Source: an uncultured Planctomycetaceae bacterium
Lineage (GTDB): Bacteria; Planctomycetota; Planctomycetia; Isosphaerales; Isosphaeraceae
NCBI GenBank assembly: GCA_963833985.1
Contig: CAWIAD010000002.1
Span: forward strand, 3,456,001-3,520,000
DNA length: 64,000 nucleotides
Direction: 5' to 3'
Position numbers: made by a program. Of the stretch, positions 39,001-42,000 are shown in pieces. Position 1 is the stretch's first letter; each line of letters begins with the position of its first letter.

Positions 39001-42000
39001 GCCCAGCCGCAGCTCGCCGTAGTTGAACCACGAGCCCGACTTCTCGACGAGCTTGTCGGCAATGGCCAGGTCGAGGATGTCTCCCTCGCGGGAGATGCCG
39101 TGGGTGTACATCATGTCGAACTCGCACACGCGGAACGGCGGCGCGACCTTGTTCTTGACCACCTTCACCTTGACCCGCGAGCCGGTGACCTCCTCGCCAT
39201 CCTTGACCGGCCCGATCCGCCGCACGTCCACGCGGGCCGAGCTGTAGAACTTCAGGGCCCGGCCGCCGGGGGTGGTCTCCGGGCTGCCGAACATCACACC
39301 GATCTTCTCGCGGATCTGGTTGATGAAGATCAGTATGCACTTAGAGCGCGACACGCCCCCGGTCAGCTTGCGCAGGGCCTGGCTCATGAGCCGCGCCTGC
39401 AATCCAACATGCGAGTCGCCGATCTCACCCTCGATCTCGGCCCGGGGCACCAGGGCGGCCACCGAGTCGATCACCACGATGTCGACCGCGTTCGAGAGCA
39501 CGAGCATCTCGGCGATCTGGAGCGCCTCCTCGGCACTGCTGGGCTGGCTCACCAGGAGCGATTCGATATCGACCCCCAGCCGCTTGCACCACGACGGGTC
39601 CAGGGCGTGCTCGGCGTCGATGAACGCGGCCACCCCGCCGTTCCGCTGGGCGTTGGCCACGGCGTGCAGCGCGATGGTCGTCTTGCCGCTGGATTCCGGC
39701 CCGAACAGTTCGACAATGCGCCCGCGCGCGAAGCCCTTTCCTCCCAGGGCCAGGTCGAGCGACAGCGCCCCGCTCGAGATCCCCTCCACCTCGAGATGGC
39801 TGCCTTCCCCCAGCTTCATGATCGCGCCGGCCCCGAACGTCTTCTCGATCTGGCCGATCGCGTTGTTCAGGGCTTTCATCTCCGCCGACATGGCGGCCGG
39901 CTTGACCTCGGTGGTTCCTTGTCGCTTGGCCACGACACTCGCTCCTTCTCTCGGGTCTTTCTGTACGTTAGATCACTATCTTACTTGGTGTTTCGGTTCC
40001 GGTCAAGATGTTGCTCGAGCTTTTTTCCCCGCAGCGGAGCGCTTGCAAGTTGGACGTAGTGCGGACCTTCGGGAGCGAGCGTGGAGGCGAACGTGACGAT
40101 TTCGGTGACGCGGAAGGGTGGGGCGGACCAGTTCGTACGGGAGCCCAGCAGTTCGGTCAGGTCGATGACGGGCGCCTGGCGCCGTTCCTGGCGAATCCGT
40201 CCCAGGGTCACGTGGGGTGTGAAGTGCCGTTCATCGGGCCGGTAGCCGGCCGCGGTCACGGCGCGGGCGACGGCTTCCTGAAGCTCGTGGAGAGAGGGTC
40301 CGGCCACCGTAGCCAGCCCGACCCAGAGCACGCGCGGCCGCGCGGCGCGGGGAAGGCCCCCACGCCTTGCGGCTTCAGCTCCAGCGGGGCGAAGGGTTCG
40401 CAGGCCGCCGCCACGGCCTTGCACACGCGGTTCAGGTCGATGTCCTGCACATCGCCCAGGAAGGCGAGCGTCATGTGGAAGGGGAGGGCTGTCGACCAGC
40501 GCGCGGCCGGAACCCTGGGGGCGAGTGCCGACTGCAATCGGGTGAGTTGCTCACCGGTGGAAGCGGGTAGCGGGATCGCGACGAATGTTCGAGTGCTTCT
40601 GGCCATGAGCGGCGAACCAGGCTGCCGGTCAAAACGGCGCTGAGGCGAGACGCGAGACGCGTCATTGAGCTGGGATACCCTCGATGGTGAATTCCTCGCC
40701 AATCCGGTCGCGCAGCCGGCTCAGAGGCGTTGAGGCTGTCTCGTCGTCCATGTATTTGAGGACTTCATTGGGCTTGATTTGAATGATCAGCTTCAAGCCA
40801 TTCCTGTGCATGTCACGGGGGTCATAGTCGGCAACCAGAAAGCCCGACATCGGGTTTCCCTGCTGCGTGAACGCCAGGGAGAGCGTGCCTTTTCCGGTCC
40901 CGGTCATACCGACGTTCCGGGTCTCACCGGGCGCCAGATGGCCCGCGCCGATGCGGCTCCCCTCGAAGGAGACCACCAGGTCGTTGATGGGCGTCTGGCC
41001 CATGTTGGTGATCTCCACGCTCGTCCTGACGGAGTCGGAGAGCCGCACCACGGCCTCGATTCCGACGGCGAGAACGACGGCAACGATCAGGCAGATCCGG
41101 ACTCGGCGCGACATCCCAGGTCCCTCCAGTTTGACTTCTACAACAGGATCGCTCCGCGCAGGGCTGAGAGCAAGATGAAACCTGGAGCGGGGCGCGGAAA
41201 CCGCGGCTACCGCGCCAGGCCGGCGCGGAGGATCCGCAGGTAGTTCGAGCGGGCGATCGGCCGCGCACCCAGGCTCAGCATGTGGCTGCTGGGGACCTGG
41301 CAGTCGATGAGTACGGTCCCCTCCGAATCCAGCCGGCGCACCAGGGCCGCGAGCGCCACCTTCGAGGCATCGCTCTGGAGATGAAACATCGATTCACCGC
41401 AGAAGCAAGAGCCAGTGCGCACGCCGTAGATCCCGCCCACGAGGCTCCCCTCACGCCAGCTTTCCATGCTCTGCGCGTGGCCCAGTTCGTGCAGCCGGAT
41501 GTAGGCGCGCTGCATCTCGCGGGTGATCCAGGTTCCGTCCTCATGTTTTCGCGGCACCTGCGCAGGCCTCGATGACGCGGGCGAACGCGGTGTTGTACCG
41601 GGTCTCGAAGCGGCCCTGCTCGATCGTGCGTTTCAGCCTGCGCGAGAGCCGCAGCTCACCGGGGAAGAGGACGAAGCGTGGATCCGGCGACCACCAGAGG
41701 ATCGGTCCTCCCGCCTCGTACCAGGGGAAGATGCCCTCGCGATAGGCGGCCAGCAGCCGGTCCGGTTCGAGATCGCCGCCCATGGCCAGCAAGCCGTCCG
41801 GCTCGGCCAGGCCGGGGGGAGGGAAGACCGGTTCGGGGCCCAGGCGGAAGACCGGCATGGCGGTCCTCGATGTTCGTGAAGCAGCCGCGGCGAACCGCCG
41901 CGGCGAGGCTCAGCTCTTGCCGCGGGCTCCCTGCCTGAGCTGCTCGATCTCGGGTGAGGGCCCGTAGTTTTGCAGGTAACGAGCCACGAACTCGTCGATC

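Follow-up and report, generated by a model that had tools for sequence, protein, structure and literature searches.

The recA gene of this planctomycete lies on the minus strand of the 64-kb window (the whole stretch of DNA analysed, 64,000 nucleotides), downstream of a gene for a LigT/ThpR-like 2H phosphoesterase that is split over two frames by one frameshift in this assembly (Table 1). The promoter of recA is of the sigma-70 type, TTGACC-17-TAAGAT, and 2 bp behind its -10 hexamer stands a 14-bp palindrome of the form TGWWC-N4-GWWCA, which reads TGTACGTTAGATCA on the plus strand at 39962–39975. Since the -35 hexamer, the 17 bp spacer and the -10 hexamer stand directly upstream, the palindrome spans about -4 to +10. 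The placement recurs in the family, with the box 1–3 bp behind the -10 hexamer in 14 of the 15 recA sites listed. Many other genes of this assembly are split by single frameshifts as the ThpR-like gene is, among them the uvrA copies, dinB, a SplB-like gene and the tail of mutL (examples in the window lie at 40256–40424 and 909–2271); these are most likely assembly errors.

Table 1 Features at the recA promoter (positions in the window)
Feature	Position	Strand	Remarks
recA, 358 aa	38857..39933	-	PF00154 (E 1e-129), PF21096
Shine-Dalgarno-like AAGGAG ahead of the recA GTG start	39942..39947	-	read from sequence
14-bp dyad TGATC-TAAC-GTACA = TGATCTAACGTACA, predicted LexA operator	39962..39975	-	covers the predicted recA transcription start
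recA promoter -10 hexamer TAAGAT	39978..39983	-	its TAA doubles as stop of the upstream LigT/ThpR gene
LigT/ThpR-like 2H phosphoesterase gene, upstream of recA	39981..40606	-	PF02834 in both frames
recA promoter -35 hexamer TTGACC	40001..40006	-	17 bp from the -10; within the upstream gene's last codons

Taken alone, the recA site is not beyond chance, and the motif carries little information. The window holds 14 matches within one mismatch as compared to 9.99 expected, and the 10.2-Mb genome holds 80 exact matches with the 4-bp spacer against 76–385 for other spacer lengths. The signal is conservation at repair-gene promoters, not genome-wide enrichment. In a comparison set of 40 relatives, where 3 of the 30 recA loci were left out for want of upstream DNA, 23 of the 27 others have the box ahead of recA with no more than one mismatch, against about 1.5 in shuffled sequences, which bears out the palindrome that a genome-wide survey's note had placed at this promoter. 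By group the counts are 10/10 in the genus, 5/6 in other genera of the family and 8/11 in other families of the class (shuffle means 0.48, 0.35 and 0.65), and 3/3 additional family genomes carry it too; conservation counts of this kind overstate significance, because kin are not independent. Substitutions in the box fall in the W and spacer columns. Among the 44 half-sites of the exact sites, TGTAC occurs 17 times, TGTTC 10, TGAAC 9 and TGATC 8 times.

A matrix trained only on the recA sites of relatives was used to rank the 7612 upstream regions of this genome, based on our own gene calls (7613 genes, frameshifted genes being missed). With this matrix recA comes second, mutL third and uvrB fourth to fifth, and a score of at least 8 is reached by 2.1% of the genes. 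The note had put recA and mutL first; they follow a 219-aa ORF in the full ranking, but are at the top when a -10-like hexamer is required, the exact box then occurring in 3 of 1172 regions with recA first and mutL second. The site before that ORF (C2:2848757; L147; C1 and C2 are contigs) was rejected as a core member, being found at the same place in 6/12 genus members and 0/7 other genera. The ORF itself is family-restricted, has no Pfam match and is located upstream of hisH-like and hisA-like genes.

The position of the box relative to the promoter differs by gene: at recA it follows the -10, at mutL it stands between -35 and -10, at a gene for a Y-family polymerase it is in tandem over -35 and -10, and at lexA of other families it covers the -10. 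Such shifting from gene to gene is the behaviour of a repressor site. That the motif is instead a sigma-factor or start-site element, or a product of chance, is hardly credible; the lack of genome-wide enrichment would agree with it, but the motif is palindromic, is variable in position versus -10 and -35, and among promoter-like regions marks repair genes only, and the conservation counts at repair promoters together with the ranking by -10 hexamer largely refute it.

The lexA gene itself presents a divided picture. The box had been said to recur before lexA, and this applies to other families of the class (10/13 within one mismatch, shuffle 1.27) and to 3/6 other genera of the family, but not to the genus (0/11). 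Outside the family there are often two boxes 1 bp apart, the second one over the -10. Inside the family a conserved block is present with degenerate sites only, as the note had described, and the left halves in this block alternate between TGTTC and TGATC, the same as at recA. The lexA box of this genome, likewise reported there as degenerate, is one of the 11 genus sites that fall outside one mismatch, and its region ranks 1039 of 7612 with a matrix trained on Verrucomicrobia sites. In the lexA leader of locus L001 a 9-bp inverted repeat, GTCAGGTAG ... CTACCTGAC, was observed, and by eye it is also present in L050.

The genome encodes one full LexA with HTH and S24 domains, of which the Ala-Gly site and the Ser-Lys dyad align with those of E. 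coli LexA. Helix 3 reads SPNGVMCHL in most of the class, and LexA proteins with this helix form one clade (SH-aLRT 97 in a quick tree). A blind scan of metagenomes for the tandem box, with a pattern designed from three lexA promoters and with many near-duplicates among its matches, returned 76 stretches, of which 48 stand directly before lexA; the helix is SPNGVMCHL in 41 of these, another one in 4 and unreadable in 3. In three further stretches the match adjoins recA or lexA but is on the opposite strand. Type of helix and type of box go together across the phylum: the palindrome precedes 10/33 lexA genes of the SPNG type and 0/31 of the xKVT type, and a direct repeat precedes 2/33 and 10/31, respectively.

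The comparative evidence for the note's reading of the palindrome as a LexA operator, namely conservation at recA, tandem boxes at lexA and the pairing of helix and box, is good, and the palindrome is very probably the LexA operator of this planctomycete class. A different DNA-damage regulator, for example a WYL-domain protein of the PafBC/DriD kind, would have to bind a site whose type tracks the LexA helix and which stands in tandem at lexA promoters across metagenomes. The genome does contain six WYL matches, one of the WYL genes carries a box-like site where its transcription starts, and the lexA sites of the family are degenerate, which would suit such a regulator. On the other side, the recA site behind the -10 is unsuited to an activator, the box of the WYL gene was not found before its three best homologues in relatives, and no tie between motif and WYL regulators was found, so that this explanation is highly improbable. 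The gene concerned (C1:701099; L707) encodes a frameshifted WYL-domain regulator; its promoter is TTGACA-17-TACGGT, a recA-like box lies where transcription starts, and the neighbouring helicase ORF is Cas3-like by eye.

The word planctomycete, which heads the note's account of the box, is too wide. In other classes the exact box is found before recA in 0/30 cases and within one mismatch in 3/30, and these counts at recA, together with the pairing of the xKVT type, which is common in those classes, with the direct repeat, led us to reject a phylum-wide palindrome; the box is that of one class. Within this class the direct repeat (GTTC/NAAC-N7) is present in 1/27 recA regions and 0/30 mutL regions. 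In one family outside the class (L095, L096, L097, L108), where the helix is of the STNIxKK type, boxes resembling G-TGAAC-N4-GTTCA-C were seen just before lexA, and no such box was found at recA. LexA proteins with helix STGxVR (L091, L092, L101, L107) and those with an E. coli-like helix (L110, L114) seem to have boxes of their own, by eye CACAC-N4-GTGTG-like words and CTG-N10-CAG, respectively; strict patterns for the two match only 1/6 each. The same palindrome as in this class was also seen before lexA genes with the helices STNGVNDHL (L411, L421, L431) and SKNAV type (L389, L469, L470). The box family therefore reaches well beyond this class, as it is found with differing helices in metagenome and Verrucomicrobiota loci.

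In SOS systems generally, LexA represses its target genes until RecA triggers its self-cleavage and the genes are derepressed. On this basis, and from the sites, their positions, their conservation and the intact LexA, we infer binding, repression and induction here as well. A LexA dimer would sit on two T(G/A)WWC half-sites at 4-bp spacing and block sigma-70 RNA polymerase; after DNA damage, RecA filaments on single-stranded DNA would cause LexA to cleave itself, and the genes would be derepressed. The predicted regulon is small and may comprise recA, lexA, the Y-family polymerase gene, a SplB-like gene, Lhr, uvrB (in the genus) and mutL (in the family only).

Evidence for the other candidate members varies. 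The note's box before dinB can be maintained for the conserved Y-family polymerase gene at C2:6279463, where tandem weak boxes across -35 and -10 are found within one mismatch in 9/19 and within two in 19/19 cases, but the classic dinB (C1:3323108) has no convincing box, with 1/12 within one mismatch. An Lhr gene was correctly said to score as well: the box is present in 11/12 genus members and the score is at least 8 in 18/30. The SplB-like radical-SAM gene, a frameshifted homologue of an NF033668 member that starts at C2:306803 (locus L673) and is a candidate additional to those of the note, is preceded by the box TGTTCATCTGGACA at C2:306689; scores of at least 8, a level that 2.1% of the genes in this genome attain, occur in 18/27 relatives and matches within one mismatch in 8. 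According to the accessible part of PMC8565304, SplB is a core SOS member and is SOS-regulated in several phyla. Of the statement that uvrA and uvrB carry no strong box, the half on uvrA agrees with our result (no box at four loci, best score 7.2), but uvrB has a conserved degenerate site over the -10 which scores at least 8 in 8/9 genus members and is rare beyond the genus; A-T-rich -10 elements inflate the W matches both here and at the Y-family gene. A duplicate of the uvrB promoter segment, site included, lies 1 kb away along with a DUF4058-like gene (C2:1719867, C2:1720856). No convincing box was found at recN (score 3.2) and dnaE. Of the 22 genes next to top-scoring sites the majority have no relation to repair, and a gyrase/topoisomerase IV site scores 14.3 in this genome. 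A repeated element carries a box with one mismatch at 2344–2357 of the window, 3 bp before a perfect TATAAT, beside a transposase-like ORF on the minus strand (1288–2271); the same element occurs at C2:721748, C2:3745600, C2:4507701 and C1:1833646, and its transposition is possibly LexA-controlled.

The most unusual candidate is mutL. Its site in this genome is real but is at C2:2841387, two bases from the coordinate 2841385 given for it earlier. Within one mismatch it is found in 9/9 genus members, 3/5 other genera of the family and 1/16 regions from other families (shuffle 0.7); the family total of 19/22 is made up of 12/14 in the first set and 7/8 additional genomes. The box covers about -31 to -18 and overlaps the -35 position and the spacer of a promoter with a consensus -10 and a poor, TTTCTG-like -35, the TT of which is kept at 17 bp. 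Its left half is TGAAC (16) or TGTAC (15) with T, G and C invariant; the right half hardly departs from GATCA, and in most cases GCAA or GGAA forms the spacer. A pattern of box plus -10, built from the mutL geometry, gave 85 matches in 61 family genomes as compared to 15 for a reversed control; the 77 loci examined, which account for 78 of the 85 matches, include 23 before mutL and 5 that are recA sites read backwards. Three MqnE promoters also match this pattern, and the homologue in this genome is without it (score -3.6).

Selection on the mutL site in the family is well supported by these comparisons. It may be asked whether the site is merely a conserved segment of the promoter, or is bound by LexA without effect, the sites at recA and lexA being true LexA operators. 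The overlap with -35 and spacer, the conservation of TTT and -10 besides the box, the nearly fixed right half and spacer, the 1/16 outside the family and the box-free mutS all fit such an explanation. Yet the box is kept within one mismatch in 19/22 family genomes although the upstream genes vary, its left half alternates between two forms around invariant T, G and C, and the pattern count, even if tied to the geometry from which the pattern was derived, exceeds its control; taken together, a promoter segment of this kind is rather doubtful. LexA is known to activate genes in other bacteria, and it could be imagined that LexA activates mutL from the -35 position, so that SOS would lower MutL and create a transient mutator state. 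The consensus -10 combined with a poor -35 overlapped by the box is what such activation would need, but polymerase would be blocked by a dimer at about -31 to -18, the -35 retains its TT at a distance of 17 bp, the corresponding site at recA has a position suited to repression, and mutL of Leptospira rises after UV according to the part of PMC4756842 that is accessible; activation is accordingly very unlikely. LexA-dependent induction of mutL remains the likely course, with less assurance than the operator reading itself. The SOS membership that the note had claimed for mutL would at most concern this family, as judged from the site, and mutS, with no box in 4/4 upstream regions, is not part of it.

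A possible origin of the mutL site is suggested by an NtrC-like gene which is located upstream of mutL in 8/16 class and 9/41 family loci (L061–L090, L541–L642), and whose final codons are similar to the mutL box and -10 of the family. With a mutL-promoter matrix, 7/17 of the NtrC-like gene ends exceed 99.7% of the 5134 gene ends of this genome and 10/17 stay below that level, the likeness being a post hoc observation on orthologues that are not independent. The mutL promoter-operator might have been born from coding sequence by duplication of the last codons of an ancestral upstream NtrC-like gene. The duplicated end would be L-Y-R-K-I-K-E-Y-N, encoded by CTG TAC CGC AAG ATC AAG GAA TAC AAT, in which loss of one base from TGTAC-CGCAA-GATCA would place a LexA box five bases before a TACAAT-like -10, and LexA would now control MutL, not MutS. 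Because 10/17 ends fail, several family genomes have both an intact NtrC-like gene end and a box apart from it, and the likeness was noticed post hoc, this origin is a lead rather than a result, and on balance it is improbable.

Regarding novelty, no LexA box of planctomycetes was found in the literature outside subscription journals, RegPrecise and CollecTF, and Erill 2016 may mention planctomycetes. All that the accessible part of PMC3108266 states is that the E. coli motif is not the one used by planctomycete LexA. The supplement of PMC8565304 lists V. spinosum and has no 'planctomy' entry, and the accessible parts of PMC7739468, PMC13148647 and PMC5101192 add nothing on a planctomycete box. 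The SOS operator is real and probably functional; it has apparently escaped description in this class, but the family to which it belongs is known. The operator type as such will be no surprise to an SOS specialist; more unusual are the link to mutL and the way in which it may have arisen. What is gained is an SOS operator with its regulon, both open to test, in a large class of bacteria for which no LexA box was found in print. A LexA that accepts GAAC, GTAC, GATC and GTTC halves would, if confirmed, be a living intermediate of the Bacillus, cyanobacterial and Verrucomicrobia boxes, and would bear on the drift of LexA motifs. If mutL but not mutS were under LexA control, SOS and mismatch repair would be connected in a way that is rare, and a promoter born from coding sequence would illustrate the recruitment of a gene into a regulon.

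It is instructive to compare the box with those of other bacteria. In Alphaproteobacteria the LexA box is the direct repeat GTTC-N7-GTTC; the regulator family is the same, but this box is not used in the planctomycete class studied here. A close relative is the Verrucomicrobia box, reportedly TGTTC-N4-GAACA in the work of Erill et al. of 2016, which is an exact instance of the present consensus, with the 14-bp dyad, the TG...CA ends and the 4-bp spacer. In Verrucomicrobium sp. BvORR034 the exact box TGTTCAATCGAACA lies directly before recA, an exact box being present in 3/6 recA loci altogether (the Verrucomicrobiales genomes BvORR034, Luteolibacter sp. AS25 and a Verrucomicrobiaceae MAG), and before Verrucomicrobia lexA it is exact in 7/35 loci and within one mismatch in 18/35. 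With a matrix of Verrucomicrobia sites, recA takes rank 5 of 7612 in this genome, the Y-family gene rank 14 and mutL rank 17, a result that is partly circular because the consensus served to select the training sites. The LexA types of both groups share Met at the position of E. coli Glu44. The differences are that positions 3–4 of the planctomycete half-site are free for A or T, with TGTAC commonest and TGTTC in 10/44, whereas Verrucomicrobia have fixed TGTTC; that helix 3 is SPNGVMCHL here and SQTAAMSHL or STNAVMGHL there; and that the LexA proteins form separate clades without a supported joint branch in a quick tree with unresolved deep nodes. Since helix and clade differ, the planctomycete box is better regarded as a looser variant than as a strict member of the Verrucomicrobia type.

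For the link with mismatch repair there is a precedent in Vibrio, where LexA binding at mutH was demonstrated by gel shift, as the accessible part of PMC3323433 reports; there, too, a mismatch-repair gene has a LexA site, but gene and box are others, and at mutL the site is a prediction. The LexA1 box of Leptospira, CTnnACnnnnGTnnAG, determined by ChIP-seq (accessible part of PMC4756842), has the same span, a 4-bp centre and T...A at equal distance, but unlike the present box it has fixed flanking C...G and AC/GT, and its G is not fixed. The cyanobacterial box RGTACNNNDGTWCB and the Bacillus subtilis box CGAAC-N4-GTTCG, as given in the part of PMC3091678 that is accessible, share the G-W-W-C-N4-G-W-W-C core and the 14-bp length; the outer base pair is T...A here, A...T in cyanobacteria and C...G in Bacillus, and the inner bases are looser here. 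Because it contains the Verrucomicrobia box and shares the cyanobacterial and Bacillus core, the planctomycete box is best described as a variant of a known family of LexA operators.
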